This document shows positions 1-54,037 of a stretch of 64,000 bases of DNA, piece by piece (the stretch's first letter is position 1; the number at the start of each line of letters is the position of its first letter). Made by a program: the position numbers and the translations under genes. The notes under the pieces are model-generated. The model saw nothing but the letters and a program-made list of their open reading frames with translations. It was not told where the DNA came from and ran no database searches. This DNA is from a virus (taxonomy: Duplodnaviria > Caudoviricetes): IMG/VR virus record IMGVR_UViG_3300044620_001883, positions 64,001-128,000 of that record; one strand, given 5' to 3'.

Positions 1-495
1 TTGACCAACTATCGGAGTAGCGACGGCAAAGTTGCGAATTATCGGCTGCAGGTGCATCCCGCGCATTTCTATCCGTCTCTGATCAACCAGACTATCGCCA
101 TGTTACAGCGAGTCGCGGAGGAAACAGAGCAGAAGGCTGAGTGTCCAGCCCCGGCGGTCATGCAGGCTGCCGCGACGCGATTGCTGGGCACGTTACAGCA
201 GCGGCAGGCCGCCTTTGAGGAGCAGCAGAAATCTGCTGCGGGTATGCCACCCGAGAACCCCAATCTGCAGTTGCAGCCAGACGCGACGCTCATGCTGCGC
301 AACGTGGAGGTACTCGAGACTGTCGTGGTTGAAGAACCAGCAATGAAGGCAGGCAAACGCGCCACCGCCGCAAAGGTGTACACACCGGATGAACAAGCGG
401 AGCGTTGGCTACGGGCCAACTGGCCGTTAAAGCGTTACGGGGCGTCTTTCAAACTTGTCCCTGGAAAGTTTAGTTCAATCGTACCAACCGCTTAA
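1..495 (+). CDS. hypothetical protein (5' end probably truncated by the window)
   Basis: Open frame from base 1, stop just before the MazG-like gene. Confidence 0.6.
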   Translation: MTNYRSSDGKVANYRLQVHPAHFYPSLINQTIAMLQRVAEETEQKAECPAPAVMQAAATRLLGTLQQRQAAFEEQQKSAAGMPPENPNLQLQPDATLMLRNVEVLETVVVEEPAMKAGKRATAAKVYTPDEQAERWLRANWPLKRYGASFKLVPGKFSSIVPTA

Positions 496-502
496 AACAC
501 AC

Positions 503-1117
503 ATGGAATTCTACTCAAAACACAACAGGCTTACGCCAGAACTCTGGCATGATTACAGCGTCAACGCCTACAGGACGACGCCGGATGTCGGAAAACTGCT
601 AACGCAATGGGGAGTTATTCAACCTGGTCAAGACCCTGCAATGGTGGTGTGGGATCTGGCAAATGTCAGGCGTGTCGAGGATCTCAAGCACGGCGCCCAC
701 GGACTGGCCACGGAGTTGTATGAATACGCCTGCGCTCCGGATGAGGAAAACCGCAACGAGGAACTTGGGGATATCTGCTGGTACTTGGCTGTGATCGTAC
801 GTGGCCTTGACTTGTGCCTCGATGATATCTGCCCACCAACCGATGACGGCACCATGTTTGCAATGACATTCCCGGCGTGTGCACATGAGGTTGTGGGAGA
901 CCTCAAACGCCTGGCCTACTATGATCGCCAAGAAATACGGGACAGGTTAATCACCAACATCAGATCCACATTGATCTGTATTCAGGGACTTGCATCCTGC
1001 AGCATGGCCGAGTTGCTAGATCAGAACAGTCATAAACTTCTCAAGAAACGTTACCCTGATGGATTCAGCAACGAAGCAGCTACGGCTCGCCGCGATAAAC
1101 CGGGCGAGAGCGATTGA
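503..1117 (+). CDS. MazG-like nucleoside triphosphate pyrophosphohydrolase
   Basis: HGLATELYE...EELGDICWYLAV and C-terminal NSHKLLKKRYPDGFS match the phage MazG-like family. In-frame ATG at 503 chosen as start. Confidence 0.8.
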   Translation: MEFYSKHNRLTPELWHDYSVNAYRTTPDVGKLLTQWGVIQPGQDPAMVVWDLANVRRVEDLKHGAHGLATELYEYACAPDEENRNEELGDICWYLAVIVRGLDLCLDDICPPTDDGTMFAMTFPACAHEVVGDLKRLAYYDRQEIRDRLITNIRSTLICIQGLASCSMAELLDQNSHKLLKKRYPDGFSNEAATARRDKPGESD

Positions 1118-3343: not shown

Positions 3344-3579
3344 CCAAACACGCACCAGTCGAAATGGAATTGCGCCGGTTGACGGCGGCTCATCGTTACG
3401 GTGAGTTGAAAAATGTACGACGCCTTTCACCAGGGTTAGCGGCAGGAGTGGTCCAAACCGGCTGTAGGACACTCATTTGTCGGCGCCTGAGAACAGGGGA
3501 ATGCGTTTTGTTGTGGTCCGCATCATGGCTGCCTTTGCGGCAGCTTCTGAGGCTCCAACATGCCGGCTATCAAACATAA
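3340..3579 (+). CDS. hypothetical protein
   Basis: GTG start overlapping the previous stop. Confidence 0.45.
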   Translation: MTKHAPVEMELRRLTAAHRYGELKNVRRLSPGLAAGVVQTGCRTLICRRLRTGECVLLWSASWLPLRQLLRLQHAGYQT

Positions 3580-4375
3580 CAGAGTTACAGGCAGTGCGCG
3601 CAAGAGCACTGCGGGACGTTGGAAACAGAAACAGCTGCAGAAGCAGCCCACAGGTGCGCTGCTAAAGTTCAGTCGTGACAATGCCAAGCTGGGAAGTCAC
3701 ATCCTGACGTTTTCCCTGCCATCCGGCCACACATGCCCCGGAGCTTGCACCTGTTTGGCCAAGGTGGATTTCAACACTAACCGGCTTGTGGACGGACCGC
3801 AGCAGGACACACGATGCTTTTCTGCCTCGCAGGAAGTGGCGTTCAAGAACTTGCGTGAAGCCAGGCGCTTCAACTTCGCATTGCTCCGTCGGCTCAAGAA
3901 AGCCACAGACATGCGGGATCTGATTTTGCGATCTCTGCCTGATGTGGGTGGTATCATTCGGATACACATCGGAGGTGACTTCTTTTCGCAGACATACTTT
4001 GACGCCTGGCAAATGGTGGCGCAGGCGCGTCCATATCAAAAGTTTTACGCGTACACGAAGTCCATACCGTTCTGGCGCAACTGGCTCAACAGGCACAAGG
4101 CGCTGGCCAAGAACTGTTTTCTGACGGCCAGCCTTGGTGGTAAGTTCGACGACCTAATTCTCCCGGGCTGGGTCACAGCCCAGATTGTAAAACATCCCGA
4201 CGTGGCCGAGGCGTTGGAACTGGAGATCGACCATGATGACTCCCATGCCTACAACCCGCGTGGGTCCTTTGCACTGCTGATCCATGGTCCACAACGCCCA
4301 GGTACAGAGGCTGCTGCCTCGCTCAAAACGCTGCGTGAAGAAGGTGTGCAGTACAGCTATTCACGAAAAAAATGA
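3560..4375 (+). CDS. Gp88-family phage protein (Cys-rich, radical-SAM-like)
   Basis: FSLPSGHTCPGACTC, RCFSASQE, IRIHIGGDFFSQTYFDAW, FYAYTKS. Confidence 0.7.
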   Translation: MPAIKHNRVTGSARKSTAGRWKQKQLQKQPTGALLKFSRDNAKLGSHILTFSLPSGHTCPGACTCLAKVDFNTNRLVDGPQQDTRCFSASQEVAFKNLREARRFNFALLRRLKKATDMRDLILRSLPDVGGIIRIHIGGDFFSQTYFDAWQMVAQARPYQKFYAYTKSIPFWRNWLNRHKALAKNCFLTASLGGKFDDLILPGWVTAQIVKHPDVAEALELEIDHDDSHAYNPRGSFALLIHGPQRPGTEAAASLKTLREEGVQYSYSRKK

Positions 4376-4944: not shown

Positions 4945-5406
4945 ATGCATGTCGCGCGACTACTCCAGATGGCTGATTACCTTGATCGTCTGGATCCGTC
5001 GCGTTTCACCATGCAGGCCTGGGTGCGCGTACCGCAGGCTCCGCGTTCGCACTTGATCAACCAACTCCCACCGGACAGCCGAGCTTGCCCGGTGGGATGG
5101 CTTCCTGACTTGGATCCTGAAAACTGGTGTTGGGTGGCCGTGCCTGAATCCTCTGAAGGGAAAGTGGAGTTGACCATCTACCCCGTGTGCAAGGTAGCCG
5201 CGGTATGGTGTGGGGAGGGACTGCAACCACATAACCTTGACCTCAATCCGGTGGTGTGTCGGGTGTGGCAGCAGGTGCGAGAATGGTTCGAGCTGGATTC
5301 GTTACAGCTGACGGGGCGGCTATTTGAGAGCAGTGGGTATGGTAATGGCGAGCCGGAACCGGGTCAAGTGGCGCGACGCATACGCGAGACAGTTTGTGTG
5401 CAATAA
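4945..5406 (+). CDS. hypothetical protein
   Basis: ORF tiling. Confidence 0.6.
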   Translation: MHVARLLQMADYLDRLDPSRFTMQAWVRVPQAPRSHLINQLPPDSRACPVGWLPDLDPENWCWVAVPESSEGKVELTIYPVCKVAAVWCGEGLQPHNLDLNPVVCRVWQQVREWFELDSLQLTGRLFESSGYGNGEPEPGQVARRIRETVCVQ

Positions 5407-5431
5407 CACACACCAACGCGTTATAGAAATT

Positions 5432-5745
5432 TGAGGACGGCTACGCTTGGTGGCGCCTCACCCATCTCCCGAAAGGGCACGAACTGGGGACCTTCGGGTC
5501 CCCGCCTGCGTACTGGCTCGCTACCAGCACGCAGGTTTGTTCGGCTTCGGGCTTTGCAGTGACTTCATCGGGTCATGCATTTGGGGAAATCAAACAGGTC
5601 ATGGGTGACCTGTACGATGGTTCGTGTTCACGAGACCCCACAGGGGCGGGAATCAATATGGGGCGGCATACGCCCCCACAGGGCCCAACTGGCCCGACCG
5701 CTGACCTGGCAGTTACTACCAGGATCGTTCCGGCGAAATCCGGTT
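5432..5745 (+). ncRNA. putative highly structured ncRNA or structured 5' leader (unassigned family)
   Basis: About 13 near-contiguous hairpins, e.g. CCC-GAAA-GGG, GGGGACC-TTCG-GGTCCCC, ACAGGTCA-TGGG-TGACCTGT, GGGGCG-GCATA-CGCCCC, plus long-range helix 5478-5484/5620-5626. No credible ORF; tetraloop identity favours the + strand. Confidence 0.6.
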
Positions 5746-5752
5746 CCACACC

Positions 5753-7060
5753 ATGCAGAACAAAAGCAAACAGATGAGTCTCTCCAACATGTTCGCCCAA
5801 GGACTCACATCTATGGGCGCTCTCCTGGAGAGCAATGAGCAGTTCGCGAACCTCGCGGCGGCAAGACCGCCGCGCTGCCGCTTGACCAGCAGCTACGCAG
5901 GCCCCAACGATTTCACGTTGGAGGTCATCGGGGAACAGATGCCGGCACCGGCGAAGGTGGATGAGGCGACGGTGCGCCTCATGAAGGGATGGCTGGCCAG
6001 TCGCCAGGTCATCACGGGAATCCTTCAGGGGGATAACCTCCTGGAGGACATGTCAGTCGAGGAGGCGATCGATCTCCTCGACCAGCACCGTATCATTAAG
6101 CCCCGTGACAAGAAGTCGCTGGGCATGACCGTGTGGGAACATGCAGTTCCGCACTGCTTGTTCCGTCAGTCCCTGGAGTTCCTCCAGAAAGCAGGACCTG
6201 GCCTCCCGGCAGCCTGGGACGTGGTGGAACTCCTCGAGGATGACGACGGCACCCAAGTGGGTGTCAGCCGCGCGGATCTCGAGGACTTGATCAAGAAGAT
6301 CAAGGCCGTCGAGGCCATCGTGACGAACCTGCCCAAGATCGCAGGTCCGTTCATCCCGCTTGGGGCCGCGACACCGCGCCCCTCGCTGGACACCTCGGAT
6401 ATCCAGCGCAACACCCGCTGGGTGCCGCTGAGCCGCTGGGGTGGTACGACGGCGTTCAAGTTGCGGATTGAGGTCCGCAACGGTCGTATGACGGCCATGT
6501 CGGCCGTTCCTGAACTGGAGGGCGGTACTCGGGAGAAACCCGAGGTCGTCCAACAGGCGCGCAACCCCGACCGCCACGGGCGTCCACAGCTGACGCCCCT
6601 GCCGTCTCTTCCGCCCCTGGCGGAAGACTGCCGGTTCCTCACGGACACTTTCGCACGCCGGGAGGAGATCCTCCAGGCAGCGCCAGAGTTCGCGAAATGG
6701 GCAGGAGCGGCAGGGCTACCGCTCTTCCTGCTTCAGCAGATCAACCTGACAAAGTCGGGGAAGGTCTGGCTGCAGGACGTGATGGATCAGCAGCAGCAGG
6801 CCAAGGAGGACTTGGCCGCTGCAAAGGCTGAGGCGGCCGCCGCTGTGGCCGTTGCAATGGGTGTTCAGAACGGAGAGGTCGGCGACGATTTCTCGATTCT
6901 GGAGAATGCGATTTCGTCCGCACCGATTGCGGATGAAATCGAGATCGAGCCTGAGGTGATTTCGTCCGCACCGATTGCGGATGAGATCGAGATCGAGCCT
7001 GAGGTCGAGGCAACACCAGCTGAGGCCGAAACGACACCCGCCGAGATGGCAGTTGTTTAA
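5753..7060 (+). CDS. hypothetical protein with acidic repetitive C-terminal tail
   Basis: 435 aa ORF with strongly C/G-ending codons; tail ISSAPIADEIEIEPEV x2. Confidence 0.75.
   Translation: MQNKSKQMSLSNMFAQGLTSMGALLESNEQFANLAAARPPRCRLTSSYAGPNDFTLEVIGEQMPAPAKVDEATVRLMKGWLASRQVITGILQGDNLLEDMSVEEAIDLLDQHRIIKPRDKKSLGMTVWEHAVPHCLFRQSLEFLQKAGPGLPAAWDVVELLEDDDGTQVGVSRADLEDLIKKIKAVEAIVTNLPKIAGPFIPLGAATPRPSLDTSDIQRNTRWVPLSRWGGTTAFKLRIEVRNGRMTAMSAVPELEGGTREKPEVVQQARNPDRHGRPQLTPLPSLPPLAEDCRFLTDTFARREEILQAAPEFAKWAGAAGLPLFLLQQINLTKSGKVWLQDVMDQQQQAKEDLAAAKAEAAAAVAVAMGVQNGEVGDDFSILENAISSAPIADEIEIEPEVISSAPIADEIEIEPEVEATPAEAETTPAEMAVV
6910..7005 (+). repeat. 48-bp tandem duplication (in frame)
   Basis: gatttcgtccgcaccgattgcggatga(a/g)atcgagatcgagcctgaggt twice, one mismatch. 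Confidence 0.9.
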
Positions 7061-7068
7061 GTGACCAC

Positions 7069-7120
7069 GGCGTGGGCCGGCTCAGGGGGTAACACCCCTG
7101 GGCCGGTTCCCGCCATCATT
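7069..7120 (+). terminator. long GC-rich hairpin after the 5753-7060 stop codon
   Basis: CCGGCTCAGGGG-GTAACA-CCCCTGGGCCGG (12 bp) extended by GGCG/CGCC, followed by ATCATTTT. Confidence 0.6.
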
Positions 7121-7174
7121 TTAGCTATTGCGTCTTGCTGTGTACTGCTTAGATGTAAGCATCATATAGTACAC

Positions 7175-7582
7175 ATGCACTTCGATCCTCCGGAACTCGC
7201 CGTCATTGCCGACCTAATCTTGTGGTTACTCCAGGACGGTAACATCGCCGACCAAGTGACGCAGCATGGCATCAGCCTCCCGGATTTGAAGCTCAAGCTC
7301 CTGCAGGTACAAGAGACCAGTCATGACAGTGAACCCCTGTTGTTGGATGAACCAAGCAGTGATTACGAGGAGCGCAGACGCCGCAAGCCAGCCACCGTGA
7401 AGGAGAAATCACGGAACATAGCCACGCTGGTAAATTGCTACAGCAAGAAGTCGCTGACAGGTATGCAGCTACAGGAGGCTTTCTTGGAGTCCCCGAAGCA
7501 GGACCTCGTTGATTTTATCATGCTTTCACTTTTAGGATGGGCACCCCCACAGCAGCGGAAGAAATTCCCAGCGGTCAATTAG
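7175..7582 (+). CDS. hypothetical protein
   Basis: In-frame ATG at 7175 after the hairpin region. Confidence 0.55.
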   Translation: MHFDPPELAVIADLILWLLQDGNIADQVTQHGISLPDLKLKLLQVQETSHDSEPLLLDEPSSDYEERRRRKPATVKEKSRNIATLVNCYSKKSLTGMQLQEAFLESPKQDLVDFIMLSLLGWAPPQQRKKFPAVN

Positions 7583-8037
7583 TACCGGAAGCCACGACAG
7601 TGTCAGGGCAGGAAGTAGCCAGGTTGGTATTTGACCACGCAGAGGCAAAAGGCACAGTGGAGTTGCGACGGGAAGGCTACGGCGCGTCACTGTGGGTAGA
7701 CGGTGTTGAGCTCGCCTATGTGGATCTGTTTTACCGTTCTCCAGAAGGTCAACGCGCAATCGCCGACAGTTTGGTGCAGCGCAACACCGCTCTACTGAGC
7801 GCGCCTGACAGTCTGGTGCGGCGTAACGCCGTTTTACTGGGATCACATGCCGATGAATTTGGAGAGCAGGGGCTCCTGCAGTACATTCGAGCCGAGGATG
7901 GTAGGATCGTCAGTCGCACGTATGACGAAATAGGGCTGCCCATTGTGCGCAGTCGCTGGCGTCCTATCCAAGACACGGATCCCACTCACGTGCTGTGTGA
8001 CAAGGTTCCAGCCACCTGGGAGGCAAGCAGCATATGA
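7537..8037 (+). CDS. hypothetical protein
   Basis: ORF tiling; start uncertain. Confidence 0.55.
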   Translation: MGTPTAAEEIPSGQLVPEATTVSGQEVARLVFDHAEAKGTVELRREGYGASLWVDGVELAYVDLFYRSPEGQRAIADSLVQRNTALLSAPDSLVRRNAVLLGSHADEFGEQGLLQYIRAEDGRIVSRTYDEIGLPIVRSRWRPIQDTDPTHVLCDKVPATWEASSI

Positions 8038-8288
8038 CACCCCGGCAGCAAATCCGACTTAATCAAACCTTTGCGCGTGTGAAGGGTGAGTCCATTGAGG
8101 TGCTGGAGCGCGCCGAGGAAGTCTTGAAGGAAGCACTAAAACTGCTGCGGACAGATGATGTCGAACTGCCACGGTATCTGCATTCTCAAATGCAGCTAGT
8201 CACATCTGCGCTTAACAAGGTGCTTTCCGGACAGCAGCGAGTACGCGGTATCCGGGAAGCTTGCCGGATCATGGAGGGTAAGCCGTGA
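8034..8288 (+). CDS. hypothetical protein
   Basis: ATGA coupling. Confidence 0.55.
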   Translation: MTPRQQIRLNQTFARVKGESIEVLERAEEVLKEALKLLRTDDVELPRYLHSQMQLVTSALNKVLSGQQRVRGIREACRIMEGKP

Positions 8289-8509
8289 AGCAACCTGATG
8301 TAATCATCTTTGTCGAAGGGGGTCTGGTGCAGGCAGTTCGTTCGACGGTACCGCTTACGGTGCAGGTGTTCGACAAGGACAACTACGACGCAGGGGGCAG
8401 GGCTGAGCGGGAGGACATGAGGCGTCGCTTTATCATTCTGGGTGACATGGACATTGATGACTGGTGGTCTGACGTCGTCAGAGAAACACATCCGCATGGA
8501 GCCTTCTGA
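8285..8509 (+). CDS. hypothetical protein
   Basis: GTGA coupling; VIIFVEGGLVQAV...VFDKD motif typical of small phage proteins. Confidence 0.6.
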   Translation: MKQPDVIIFVEGGLVQAVRSTVPLTVQVFDKDNYDAGGRAEREDMRRRFIILGDMDIDDWWSDVVRETHPHGAF

Positions 8510-8999
8510 AAATCAATCTTTGAAGCTGCCCAGGTTGATGGTGCAGCCGGATGGAACTGCCAAGTTGTACTTGCTGGCAGCGGATACGCATAAAGGAGGT
8601 ACGACTGTGGAATGCTTCACGGAGGAGTTGAGTATTCCACGTGCAATAGCACGCTTGCTGGACGAGTCGGAAGAGGCGGCCGTTGCTGCGTACAATGATG
8701 AGGATGAAAGTGGAGACTTCTGGGACTGGATTGAAGATGTGAGGGGTAACACCCTGGATACCTTCCAGACAGATGAGGCCACGTACTTGGTCGATCCAAC
8801 GCCACGCGTGCAGCGTCTGGAGGATCTGCTCCTCAAGGCTTTTGACCATCTGTGTTACATGGCCAATATCTTACCAGCAGGTATCATGATCGACATGGCG
8901 CGGAGTGGCCAAGATGAGGCGGCACAGCAGATCGTGAAAGAAGTAGATCGCATCCGAGCGTACCGGAAACAACATGGAAGCAATCCCAATCCCGTTTGA
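8496..8999 (+). CDS. hypothetical protein
   Basis: ORF tiling. Confidence 0.6.
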   Translation: MEPSENQSLKLPRLMVQPDGTAKLYLLAADTHKGGTTVECFTEELSIPRAIARLLDESEEAAVAAYNDEDESGDFWDWIEDVRGNTLDTFQTDEATYLVDPTPRVQRLEDLLLKAFDHLCYMANILPAGIMIDMARSGQDEAAQQIVKEVDRIRAYRKQHGSNPNPV

Positions 9000-20757: not shown

Positions 20758-22808
20758 GCACACCCACTACACCCGCACAAGTACGAGACCGCATTGAGGT
20801 TCTCAGGAAGCAGATTGAAGATGCCGCTAACTGGTACTACCAGGTGGGGCGGCCCGTGATATCAGACCAGGAATACGACAAGCTGTTCCGAGAACTGCAG
20901 ATCTACGAAGCGAGCTATCCGGAACTCCTGACGCCGGCGTCCCCAACGCAGCGCATCCTGCAGCAACCCCTGAAGGGCTTTGCTTCCTGCATGCGCCAGA
21001 TCCCAATGCTCAGCCTCGCGAATGCCTACGAGGACAAGGATATCAAGACATTCTTGGAGCGTTGCGTGAAAACAATCGGGACGCAGGACACGCCAGCCTA
21101 CTTGGTGGAGCCGAAGGTGGATGGTCTCTCCGTGGAGCTGTACTACAACCATGGTATTTTGACGCGCGCCCTGACCCGTGGTGACGGTATCACGGGTGAT
21201 GATGTGACGGCCCAGGTCAGGACGATTCGTAGCGTCCCGCTGCAACTCAAGAGCACTACCGGCTTCCTGCACCCGGATGAGATGGTGTTTCGTGGGGAAG
21301 TGTACATGTCGCGGGATACATTCCAGCTGCTCAATGCACAGCGTGTCGCCGCCGGGGAAGAGGAATGGGCAAACCCCCGCAATGCTGCCGTGGGAGCCCT
21401 CAAGCAGCTGGACCCGCGTGAGACCTCCAAGCGGCGTCTGGACTGTGTCATCTACGAGTTGCTGGAATGTGACAGCTGGGTCTGTCAGACAACCCTCCAT
21501 GATCAGTTCCGCTGCATGGGCCTGCCGACCTTTCCTCCGCATGTCCTGTACCGCACACGCCAACCCACCGTCGAGCAGACCTTGGTGTCTCTGAAGGATG
21601 CGCTGGCGCAGCTGCAGAGTGAGCGTGGTACGTTGCCCTTCGACATCGATGGCGCGGTGATCAAGCTTGATCAGCGGAATCTCCGCCGACTGCTTGGCAC
21701 CAACAAGACAGCCCCGCTCTGGGCCGCGGCCTTCAAGTACCCACCCGAGGAAGCCAAGACCGTCCTGAATTCCGTGACGGTCCAGATGGGCAAGAACGGT
21801 GTCCTGACGCCCGTGGCGGAACTCCGTGCCGTGAAGCTTGCTGGTTCCACGATTCGGCGCGCGACCCTCCACAACTATGTGGATGTCGCCGCGAAGGACA
21901 TCCGGGTCGGGGACCATGTGATCATTGCAAAAGCAGCAGAAATCATACCGCAGGTCTTACGGCCGATTCTGGACAAGCGCACAGGCGACTGTTCCAAGAT
22001 CTTCGCCCCAACGGAGTGTCCGTTCTGCGGCTCCCCCACAGGCAAGTCTGAGGAAGAGGCGGTGGCAATCCGTTGCACCAACTATGATTGCCCGGAGTGG
22101 TTCAAGCAACGTCTCTGCTACTTTGTATCCAAGGCCGCTTTGGATGTTGAGGGAATGGGACCGTCCACTATTGAGGCGATTTTGACGCATCTGCCGCGCG
22201 TGAAACGGTACGCAGATCTGTTCCTGCTTGGCATCCCCGAGTTGGATCGGTGCGGGCTAGGGGAGAAGCAGGCCAGCAATACCGTCAAGGCACTCGCGAC
22301 GGCACGTCAACGCGCAGCCCAGGAGCAAGACCGGGTTATCCGGGGACTCTGTATCCCGCAGGTTGGCAACACGGCATCGAGGGCGCTCGTGACACACTTT
22401 GGCAGTATCCCAGCAATCCTGGCCGCCGCCGACCAGGATATCCTGTCCTGTCCGGATATGCTCCCTGTGGCTGCCGCAGCCTTCCTGGCCTGGCGGCAAG
22501 ACACCGAGAAGGTGCGGGACATTGATCTGCTGGGTTTGGTCGGCTTCGAGTTCCCGGAAGCCACGCGGGAGATCAAAGGTAACACCTTGGAGGGTGAAAT
22601 CTGGGTCATCACCGGCACCCTGACGGTCCCACGTGAGATCGCAGCGGCGATGATCAGGGCCCACGGAGGCAAGGTGGCATCGGGGGTGACCAAGAACACG
22701 ACCCGGTTGCTCGCCGGTGACAAGGCAGGCTCGAAACTCGACAAGGCCGCGAAGCTGGGTGTCATGGTGGTAACCGAAGAAGAGTTCCGGACGCGCATTG
22801 GAGCTTGA
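20754..22808 (+). CDS. ligA: NAD-dependent DNA ligase
   Basis: MLSL, EPKVDGLS, TRGDGITG, RGEVY, NPRNAAVG, DIDGAVIK, AFKYP, RATLHN, Cys4 zinc finger, HhH repeats, C-terminal BRCT. Confidence 0.97.
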   Translation: MSTPTTPAQVRDRIEVLRKQIEDAANWYYQVGRPVISDQEYDKLFRELQIYEASYPELLTPASPTQRILQQPLKGFASCMRQIPMLSLANAYEDKDIKTFLERCVKTIGTQDTPAYLVEPKVDGLSVELYYNHGILTRALTRGDGITGDDVTAQVRTIRSVPLQLKSTTGFLHPDEMVFRGEVYMSRDTFQLLNAQRVAAGEEEWANPRNAAVGALKQLDPRETSKRRLDCVIYELLECDSWVCQTTLHDQFRCMGLPTFPPHVLYRTRQPTVEQTLVSLKDALAQLQSERGTLPFDIDGAVIKLDQRNLRRLLGTNKTAPLWAAAFKYPPEEAKTVLNSVTVQMGKNGVLTPVAELRAVKLAGSTIRRATLHNYVDVAAKDIRVGDHVIIAKAAEIIPQVLRPILDKRTGDCSKIFAPTECPFCGSPTGKSEEEAVAIRCTNYDCPEWFKQRLCYFVSKAALDVEGMGPSTIEAILTHLPRVKRYADLFLLGIPELDRCGLGEKQASNTVKALATARQRAAQEQDRVIRGLCIPQVGNTASRALVTHFGSIPAILAAADQDILSCPDMLPVAAAAFLAWRQDTEKVRDIDLLGLVGFEFPEATREIKGNTLEGEIWVITGTLTVPREIAAAMIRAHGGKVASGVTKNTTRLLAGDKAGSKLDKAAKLGVMVVTEEEFRTRIGA

Positions 22809-22811
22809 TTG

Positions 22812-23055
22812 GATACGCACGTCGTGTCATTCTCATTTTATCTGCGGCTAGTGCTCCCCTAGCTGCAGATGCACCACCAGCAGGTGTGCAGTGTCGGAAG
22901 CGTTTTCCTGCAACCTTTCCCTGAGTGGTTACAGGGTTTCACGTATTGTCCCTGCACGCGCAATAAACCGCGGCAGGGTTTCCGATCAGAACAGCTGGCG
23001 TTTATTAAACAGGACTGGCAGGTGCTCCCTCACACCTGCCAGTCCATTTTTCATA
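22812..23055 (+). ncRNA. putative structured ncRNA / 3' UTR element
   Basis: Six to seven hairpins, long-range TCGGAA/TTCCGA helix, two loops sharing GTGCTCCC, ends in a terminator. Confidence 0.45.
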
Positions 23056-23056
23056 T
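23012..23056 (+). terminator. Rho-independent terminator
   Basis: Perfect 13-bp stem GGACTGGCAGGTG/CACCTGCCAGTCC followed by ATTTTTCATATTT. Confidence 0.8.
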
Positions 23057-23075
23057 TTACATGGGCAGAACTAGA

Positions 23076-23303
23076 ATGAGCAGAGACGTCCGGTACTTTG
23101 TGCTGGGTTGGGTGTGCGTGTTGGTTGGTATGGTTCCTTGGGCGGTGCTGCTGGCCGACTCTTCCGGCGCCGTGTTTGGCATGTTGTGCGTCGTGGGGCA
23201 GATCGCAGGGGCCTGTGTGGGTTTTTGGCTCATCTACAAAGCGCACACGTGGCGTGAACCAGAACCGAAGAAAGAACGTCCAAACAACGAAAAATGGTCA
23301 TGA
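23076..23303 (+). CDS. small two-TM membrane protein
   Basis: Two hydrophobic helices; in-frame ATG after the terminator. Confidence 0.6.
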   Translation: MSRDVRYFVLGWVCVLVGMVPWAVLLADSSGAVFGMLCVVGQIAGACVGFWLIYKAHTWREPEPKKERPNNEKWS

Positions 23304-53273: not shown

Positions 53274-54037
53274 GCATAGGCTCGGCGTAACCAATCCAGG
53301 AAGTCTGCTACAGACAGGCTGGCTTTAGCCACGTTGCACGTGCGACAGCAGGTCACCGCATTTTCTACGTTGTAGCCATTCGCATTGTCGCGTCGGTCTA
53401 CGCCATTATAGTAACCATGGGCTAGTGAGGGGTCATCTATGATTTTGCCGGAGGCACAACCAGGCAACCAGCCGCAGTACGCGCATGGTGCTTGTACTAG
53501 TTTCATGAATGTCGTCTTGTCTAAATCGAATGGTAATCCCCGACGTACAGCGTTGCCTTTATAGCGATGCAACAGGATGTTACCGGCCAATACCGGTACG
53601 TCTCGATTTTTGCGTCTTCGCTTTGCTGTTTTTTCTTGCGTTCGTTTCGTACTCTCAATCATTAGACAACCGCAGCTGCGTACAGGCTGAAGTGTCGAAC
53701 GTAGCTTGGTTCCGAATTTCGTAACGGTCTTTCCGCAACTGCAGGAGCAAACCCAACGACGCGCTTTGGGTTTGTTCTTTCCTTCCGGTTGGCTATCAGC
53801 TGCTGCGATAACGGTCAGTCGTCCGAATACTTTGCCGAGCATATCCGCACCTGTGGACCTTTTTCTACAGCCACAACTGCCATGCAGGCCTAGCTGCCTA
53901 GTCTGAATTAGCTGCACGTTTGTACGTGTGAATGTTTTACCGCAGACACATCGGCAATTCCATACGTGATTGCCGATGTGTTTCAGTACAGTGGAATGCC
54001 CAATCTCTATGTTTGTGAAATCTATAAGCTTGCTCAT
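53258..54037 (-). mobile_element. free-standing HNH (His-Me finger) homing endonuclease-like gene
   Basis: Two WxCxCxCG...SCGC modules (FGRLTV), then CAYCG...GVDRRDNANGYNVENAVTCCRTCNVAK. Only convincing minus-strand gene; lower GC than neighbours. Confidence 0.8.

Follow-up and report, generated by a model that had tools for sequence, protein, structure and literature searches.

Stem-loops at the 5' terminus are stabilizers of mRNA, the rpsA and rpsO leaders of Escherichia coli are structured enhancers of translation that lack a Shine-Dalgarno (SD) sequence, and gp32 of phage T4 carries an acidic C-terminal tail. The gene 32 mRNA is the most stable of the T4 mRNAs, with an RNase E cut at -71 and a pseudoknot that begins at -67 (PMC3014915). 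Its leader mediates autogenous repression by gp32, a single-stranded DNA-binding protein (SSB), and phage RB49 has lost the knot (PMC535899, PMC3014915). A 2010 review, which also mentions a pseudoknot of rpsO, considered the gene 32 knot possibly the only viral example in translational autoregulation (PMC3014915). Here we analyze a structured leader RNA and the gene for a 435-aa protein behind it, located on the plus strand of a 64,000-nt stretch (the window) of IMG/VR record IMGVR_UViG_3300044620_001883, a 121-kb record of an uncultured large phage estimated to be 59% complete.

By comparison of homologous loci, a promoter-like motif, a predicted paired leader and a terminator-like closing hairpin are conserved around this gene. 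The structured leader is real and uncatalogued, and it stands on a core gene whose product has an unrecognized fold. We consider it an even call that the leader is a cis-acting element for stability and translation initiation of a highly expressed, monocistronic mRNA, served by a general reader and not by a dedicated protein partner.

Conserved signals of the transcription unit

Homologous loci numbered 12, the window and 11 fetched contigs (L-numbers denote contigs or loci, and G000 the window's own record). The window, L001, L002 and L003, at 62-91% protein identity, are the close loci. The promoter-like motif lies with the same spacing upstream of 11 of the 12 loci, and a long hairpin stands 3' of the stop codon in all 12 (z-score -4.8 to -8.0), its arms changed yet paired. 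A U run and TTAGCT usually follow this closing hairpin. The U tract is good in L011, L012, L015 and L020; in the window, only four U follow after a 4-nt gap, and a terminator scan did not call the hairpin there, where the U run is weak. The sequence-only reading had proposed a separate unit closed by two hairpins. Separateness is supported by comparison, as promoter motif and closing hairpin are conserved and the structure of the leader is under selection, and both hairpins exist (region z-score -6.25). The one abutting the next start codon belongs to the downstream gene and not to the unit. Insulation that sets the unit apart from its surroundings was also proposed; the layout is indeed insulated but not unique, as a second unit in the record has the same signals. 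The unit is probably highly expressed. The motif would be a strong host-type promoter, with a transcript start predicted near 5433-5434 (Table 1).

Table 1. Features of the unit and its borders, in window coordinates
Feature	Position	Strand	Details
Promoter-like motif	5399..5433	+	TGCAATA, 11 nt, CGCGTTATA, then TTG; overlaps stop codon of upstream gene
5'-terminal stem-loop at inferred transcript start	5432..5460	+	Pair probability 0.99
Short GAAA-tetraloop hairpin	5468..5477	+	Invariant in the 4 close loci
Three-way junction	5480..5543	+	P1 5480-84/5539-43; P2 5486-5503 with cUUCGg loop; P3 5505-5535
Variable, dispensable hairpins	5547..5653	+	About 95 nt deleted in L001; sequence differs in L002, L003
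Pentaloop module	5654..5679	+	A/U-rich flank; 6-bp stem 5660-65/5671-76 closed CG..CG; loop GCAUA; then CAC
Accessory hairpin, CAACU loop	5681..5695	+	In window, L001, L002; same loop in L011; absent in L003
Predicted H-type pseudoknot 1	5700..5723	+	S1 5700-03/5710-13; L1 one A; S2 5705-09/5719-23
Predicted pseudoknot 2	5725..5743	+	S1 5725-27/5734-36; S2 5730-33/5740-43; ends 9 nt before AUG
435-aa protein, clade-core family	5753..7060	+	ATG start; beta-rich domain with helical insertion, helical domain, long helix, disordered acidic tail
Tandem 48-nt (16-aa) duplication in acidic tail	6910..7005	+	47/48 identical, one mismatch
Terminator-like hairpin with 3' signal	7069..7126	+	Hairpin 7069-7114, 20-nt arms, 80% complementary; short U run 7119-7122; conserved TTAGCT 7121-7126
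Second hairpin, abutting next start codon (7175)	7140..7174	+	Kept in L001; different folds in L002, L003

Elsewhere in the 121-kb record only one further strong match to the promoter motif was found. The motif occurs in 37 metagenome loci, nearly all before genes outside the 435-aa family, and part of these are probably chance matches. It is also present in a contig of a Verrucomicrobiaceae metagenome-assembled genome (MAG) whose context is shared with a phage-like contig; this occurrence hints at a host of the Planctomycetes-Verrucomicrobia-Chlamydiae (PVC) group, Verrucomicrobia or relatives.

The second promoter copy lies on the minus strand at G000:C1 ~93400 to 92150 (L021 1900 to 650), about 12.3 kb before the window start. 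It apparently drives a leaderless 125-aa hydrophobic open reading frame (ORF) and a 277-aa ORF, and the unit ends in a hairpin plus TTAGCTATTG, the same signal as in the 435-aa unit, just 5' of the next long gene. The related contigs L037, L042 and L044 have the promoter in syntenic position, followed by other genes. The sequence TTA(G/C)CTAT recurs 3' of terminator-like hairpins, conserved beyond a plain U tract, at window 7121-7130, at G000 sites outside the window (about 11.1 kb ahead of its start and 2.3 kb beyond its end) and at L071 7500-7512; the gene that follows may use it as a promoter or a processing signal. In L022 (IMGVR_UViG_3300028364_000018), a polymerase-encoding phage with no match to the 435-aa family, the same promoter motif at 8059-8850 precedes about 765 nt that hold no ORF of at least 90 aa and are hairpin-rich by eye, a candidate long structured RNA.

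Structure and spread of the leader

The gap upstream of the gene (5407-5752) folds better than its shuffles, with z-scores of -3.2 on the plus and -5.4 on the minus strand, and the cUUCGg and GNRA-type loops read on the plus strand, which counts for the cis-acting element that we favor. In a genome-wide scan of 100-nt windows, 11 of 1614 fell below a z-score of -4; within the leader only the one at 5443 stands out (-4.2), in its first 110 nt, and the rest is unremarkable window by window. Strong folding was also seen at 22993-23090 (-5.9), at 53893-53990 (-5.1) and in G000 about 29.6 kb before the window start (-6.2). Leaders range from 92 to about 350 nt across the loci; those of the eight distant loci measure 92 to ~185 nt and hold unrelated hairpins. 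A hairpin of different sequence is predicted near the same 5'-terminal position in most homolog leaders. ORFs within the window leader (at 5431, 5447, 5559 and 5575) were rejected as coding, as they are not conserved in frame.

In the close loci, 96% of cells of the tested leader structure are paired and 13 pairs are changed on both sides (4 sequences); none of 500 shuffles reached this, and slid controls came to at most 46%. The GAAA hairpin, whose three pairs never vary, is therefore uninformative for covariation, and the minimum free energy fold favors a long-range alternative to it. A model of the junction (R1) matches only the window and L001-L003 and none of the eight more distant loci; the junction is thus kept only at protein identities of at least 62%. 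In L003 the junction lies behind a paralog gene, away from the promoter, and therefore follows the gene, not the start of the transcript. A 330-nt 5' leader in L071 looks similar by eye but was set aside: it has no R1 match, and its first gene is not a homolog.

The 3' part of the leader is more widespread. Its consensus is a 5-6-bp hairpin with CG..CG closing pairs and a GNANA loop, bordered by A/U-rich sequence on the 5' side and A/C-rich sequence on the 3' side. Nine instances were collected: the window, L001-L003, L008, L014 and three in L071. Over the nine, 94% of the stem is paired, four of six pairs are changed on both sides, and covariation is 0.58 versus 0.15 in shuffled alignments. 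Closing pairs and both flanks are common to all instances, and eight of the nine loops fit GNRNA. A model of the last 100 nt of the leader matches L008 (36% identity, E-value 8e-4) and the unrelated contig L041 (6e-6); L014, at ~25% protein identity, is matched weakly by the model and exactly by pattern. The strict pentaloop pattern gave eight matches in 948 kb, five of them in leaders of the 435-aa family, and four other matches in 242 kb of this genome, where the module copy is the only one in the 121-kb record. Matches of a motif scan in L006 and L007 were attributed to chance, and pentaloop matches in three further contigs were discounted: those in L075 and L076 fall within a reading frame of a small, unrelated phage, and the one in L077 does not pair.

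L071, a longer contig (10 kb) that includes L041, belongs to another, unrelated phage, and it uses the same promoter motif. Its three module copies are all intergenic and on the coding strand, each before a different small unrelated gene, and two sit directly 3' of terminator-like hairpins. Module copies lie ~50-90 nt upstream of start codons. By this comparison the 3' module of about 90 nt, a GNANA hairpin with predicted pseudoknots, is portable between genes. At L071 4737-7556 the promoter motif, the 330-nt folded leader and small genes separated by terminator-like hairpins stand together with the three modules.

Two tandem pseudoknots are predicted between the pentaloop and the start codon. 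The stems of knot 1 are invariant in the close loci while loop 3 varies, and the first L071 copy carries a compensated version. Knot 2 is predicted in all four close loci, with one two-sided pair change and one G-U change. Knots are predicted at the same position in L008, L014 and L071 copies 2 and 3, where their score is reached by 0-1 of 40 shuffles; for the tandem, 0-3 of 100 shuffles and 5 of 123 upstream regions score as high. Two L071 copies have an SD-like run of purines as the distal knot strand, 14-15 nt upstream of the AUG. L011, which lacks the pentaloop, has a strong predicted knot ending at the AUG, and L012, L015, L018, L019 and L020 have neither pentaloop nor a knot above shuffles. 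No SD precedes the AUG in the window or its close relatives, and the 9 nt between knot 2 and the ATG are C/A-rich. An end of the structured region 8 nt before the ATG, as proposed from the sequence, agrees with a last stem ending at 5743-5745, 7-9 nt before it, but as a plain hairpin that stem has a pairing probability of only 0.23. At window 22805-23303 another gap holds knot-forming stretches (scores 26-27), with no pentaloop and no match to the leader model.

The 435-aa protein

The gene had been read as an orphan. Sequence searches recovered 14 homologs at 20-91% identity, and searches of viral and metagenome contigs gave no further loci. All 11 homologs whose contigs were fetched have the same neighborhood, usually with a GNAT gene downstream and, in every contig reaching that far, a GP88 gene upstream. 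The gene is therefore, on synteny, a core gene of an uncultured jumbo-phage clade and not a mobile cassette. In the window the GP88-family gene, the constant upstream marker of the unit, lies at 3560-4375 (Pfam E-value 2e-30).

Strongly C/G-ending codons were only partly confirmed: G+C content at synonymous third positions is 0.74, second of 70 genes (median 0.645), but overall codon deviation ranks only 31st of 70, so the bias is real yet modest. The acidic duplicated tail is present as described, with 47 of 48 nt identical between repeat copies and a net charge of -18 over the last 70 aa. Copies of the repeat are more diverged in relatives than in the window, and every homolog combines an acidic, unalignable tail with a roughly neutral core. 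W155, W316, R238 and R303 are conserved in the beta-rich core.

A structure model from 15 sequences reached a mean predicted local distance difference test (pLDDT) score of 73.8; an earlier model from four sequences (pLDDT 35) was dropped. Structure prediction followed by Foldseek, the check proposed for the protein, was run on the whole chain and matched no fold. The best structural Z was 4.6 among 48,161 chains, in a whole-chain search that can miss a single domain. Neither Pfam nor PHROG matched any of 15 family members, and PDB sequence, INPHARED tblastn, ESM Atlas and Foldseek/VIA searches with the 435-aa protein gave no usable match; three SSB rows in a BFVD list were not counted (E-value ~1, TM-score ~0.1). 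The sequence-only reading had recognized no reverse transcriptase (RT), TnpB/IscB, Cas or recombinase motifs, and profile searches likewise gave no match to these or to RuvC/HNH and RAMP domains; a remote domain could escape such searches, and nothing points to one. A role as virion cargo via K-x-A sites is unsupported, with 0-3 motifs per homolog. Our preferred guess is that the protein is abundant and either binds nucleic acids or serves as a scaffold. In L003 the promoter and the main gene are separated, at 6720-7623, by a paralog of the beta domain (208 aa, E-value 1.2e-5), which has a folded leader of its own (277 nt, z-score -4.0) whose sequence is unrelated.

Possible functions of the leader

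For the cis-acting element that we favor, the unit would be a promoter-leader-gene-terminator arrangement of a jumbo phage, built for a stable and abundant mRNA. The 5' stem-loop and junction would shield the mRNA from decay that depends on its 5' end. The A/U-rich flank of the pentaloop is a possible site for a host endonuclease, whose cut would create a new 5' end protected by the pentaloop hairpin. The predicted knots would lie in or next to the 30S footprint of a start codon lacking an SD. Because they would overlap that footprint, initiation would require a general factor to bind the module and open the knots; bS1 of the host or a phage protein shared by several genes could fill this role. 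Since half of the homologs lack the module and unrelated genes carry it, a general reader is more likely than the encoded protein. The leader had been proposed as one half of a dedicated RNA-protein pair, which the comparison does not support: the full leader occurs at only 4 of 12 loci and the module at 6 of 12, and the module also stands before the three unrelated L071 genes. Whether homologs keep an upstream RNA has a divided answer, as the module is kept at ~25% and 36% identity but six of the 12 loci lack it. Several observations weigh against the cis-acting element or its parts. The minus strand of the gap folds at least as well as the plus strand. Covariation in the junction comes from four related sequences, which makes it good but not strong evidence. 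The knot score is a crude pair count, and single knots scoring this high lie upstream of 20 of 123 genes (16%); the case for knots consequently rests on position and conservation and not on score. Finally, five of the six loci that lack the module also have no pseudoknot above shuffles.

Alternatives assign the leader other readers or none. An autogenous translational operator as for gp32, in which the 435-aa protein binds single-stranded nucleic acid and its excess nucleates on the pentaloop or knot of its own leader and blocks the start, seems unlikely to us. The predicted knot near the start, the acidic tail of all homologs and the conserved Trp and Arg of the core fit such an operator, as does the L003 leader, which stays with the gene although the paralog lies between promoter and leader. 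T4-type gene 32 operators diverge too, RB49 being without the knot (PMC535899), and no SSB or gp32 match was found in the incomplete record, by a search whose gp32 control gave no match anywhere. Yet the module precedes three unrelated genes in L071, the protein matches no OB fold or SSB fold, and its core is near neutral and not basic. Somewhat more doubtful still is that the module is the operator of a new phage regulon, read by the 435-aa protein and controlling its own and other module-bearing mRNAs; if so, the protein would represent a new RNA-binding fold, and T4 gene 32 would be joined by a second viral case of autoregulation through a pseudoknot. Antitermination of the boxB kind is improbable. 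Here a phage N-like protein would read the GNANA hairpin and polymerase would pass 7069-7122 into the downstream genes, in keeping with the weak U run at 7119, the two L071 copies that follow terminator-like hairpins, the loops that fit GNRNA and the GNRA-like fold of such pentaloops in lambda boxB, which are often protein-bound (PMC9830547, PMC12550061). However, copies track start codons and not promoters, the 121-kb record holds a single copy, no N-like protein was identified in it, and no conserved boxA-like element was seen, the 5' flank being a short pyrimidine-rich run.

We give still less credence to a stand-alone small RNA released from the 5' part (~5433-5545) and acting in trans. 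The compact covarying junction has its own promoter, and the C-rich single strand at 5460-5467 produces a weak resemblance to sX13 (E-value 0.06, far below the cut-off), but no terminator separates leader and gene, and the junction lies behind another gene in L003 and is absent below 62% protein identity. Least probable of all is a generic array of GC-rich hairpins with no specific reader, in which selection acts on general stability alone and the instances converged on the pentaloop as a stable loop. Leader length and content do vary freely, the L003 paralog leader is equally folded with unrelated sequence, and 242 kb of this genome contain 19 relaxed GNRNA hairpins. Closing pairs and flanks shared by every instance argue otherwise, and two matches in ~1 kb of distant leaders are, given how often the strict pattern occurs elsewhere in this genome, expected by chance at ~1e-4, an estimate made before correcting for post-hoc choice of the motif.

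Comparison with described systems

The record resembles mReC-type large phages with a multi-subunit RNA polymerase (PMC7481178) in encoding a beta-type polymerase subunit and in coming from an uncultured large phage; the likeness is one of gene content, and the closest annotated phage polymerases are ~30% identical. A NAD-dependent ligase is also encoded, and the genes, nearly all on one strand, are tightly packed. Beyond the unit, a MazG-like pyrophosphatase lies at window 455-1117 (PHROG 229, E-value 3e-12), and an AT-rich segment with few ORFs inside this GC-rich genome (1480-1700, TTAGCT at 1614) is a possible promoter or origin region.

Rfam 15 gave no match in the window, at the gathering threshold or by E-value, the best being sX13 (21 bits versus 50), and none in L003. 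No tRNA or tmRNA was found, and our literature search returned no paper on the pentaloop motif or the host promoter. A hammerhead ribozyme was rejected: CUGA at 5701-5704 is followed by CC, no GAAA follows the stem and Rfam has no match. Resemblances by eye to SAM-I, c-di-GMP-I and HDV-like RNAs were dropped for want of a covariance match. The constant linkage of RNA and protein in RNA-guided or retron-type systems is not seen here, given the distribution of leader and module described above. The ~90-nt RNA module that emerges is both portable and uncatalogued, comes with promoter and terminator signals that match it, and belongs to phages whose probable hosts, Verrucomicrobia or relatives, have poorly known expression signals.

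Lambda and P22 boxB share with the module a 5-6-bp stem that covaries and a GNRNA-type loop (PMC9830547, PMC12550061). The module differs in its G-C closing pair within an invariant CG..CG, in its association with start codons and knots in place of boxA, and in that no N protein was found. With 5' stem-loop stabilizers and the rpsA and rpsO leaders the window leader has in common a hairpin at the inferred transcript start and structure by an A/C-rich start lacking an SD; it is nonetheless unrelated to these leaders in sequence, without an Rfam match, phage-borne and, in its 3' module, portable between genes. The module offers a small, testable case of how a message lacking an SD is made stable and well translated.

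The gene 32 leaders of T4, T2 and RB69 offer the closest likeness: a compact H-type knot, here predicted, with a one-A first loop upstream of the start; an A/U-rich candidate site for cleavage immediately ahead of the structured part; a gene with an acidic C-terminal tail; and an operator lost or altered in some relatives. The gene 32 leader, however, has an unstructured tract of more than 40 nt with UUAAA repeats and an SD, and the window leader has neither, leaving only 9 nt. Two tandem predicted knots reaching to -10, the extra pentaloop and the three-way junction further distinguish it, its protein has no gp32 or OB-fold match, and the module also stands before unrelated genes. As the tract and SD are missing and the protein is not recognizably gp32, the leader is not a member of the gene 32 family. 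By analogy it may still work like the gene 32 leader, and binding by the 435-aa protein, if true, would make it the second viral case, with a protein of unrecognized fold.

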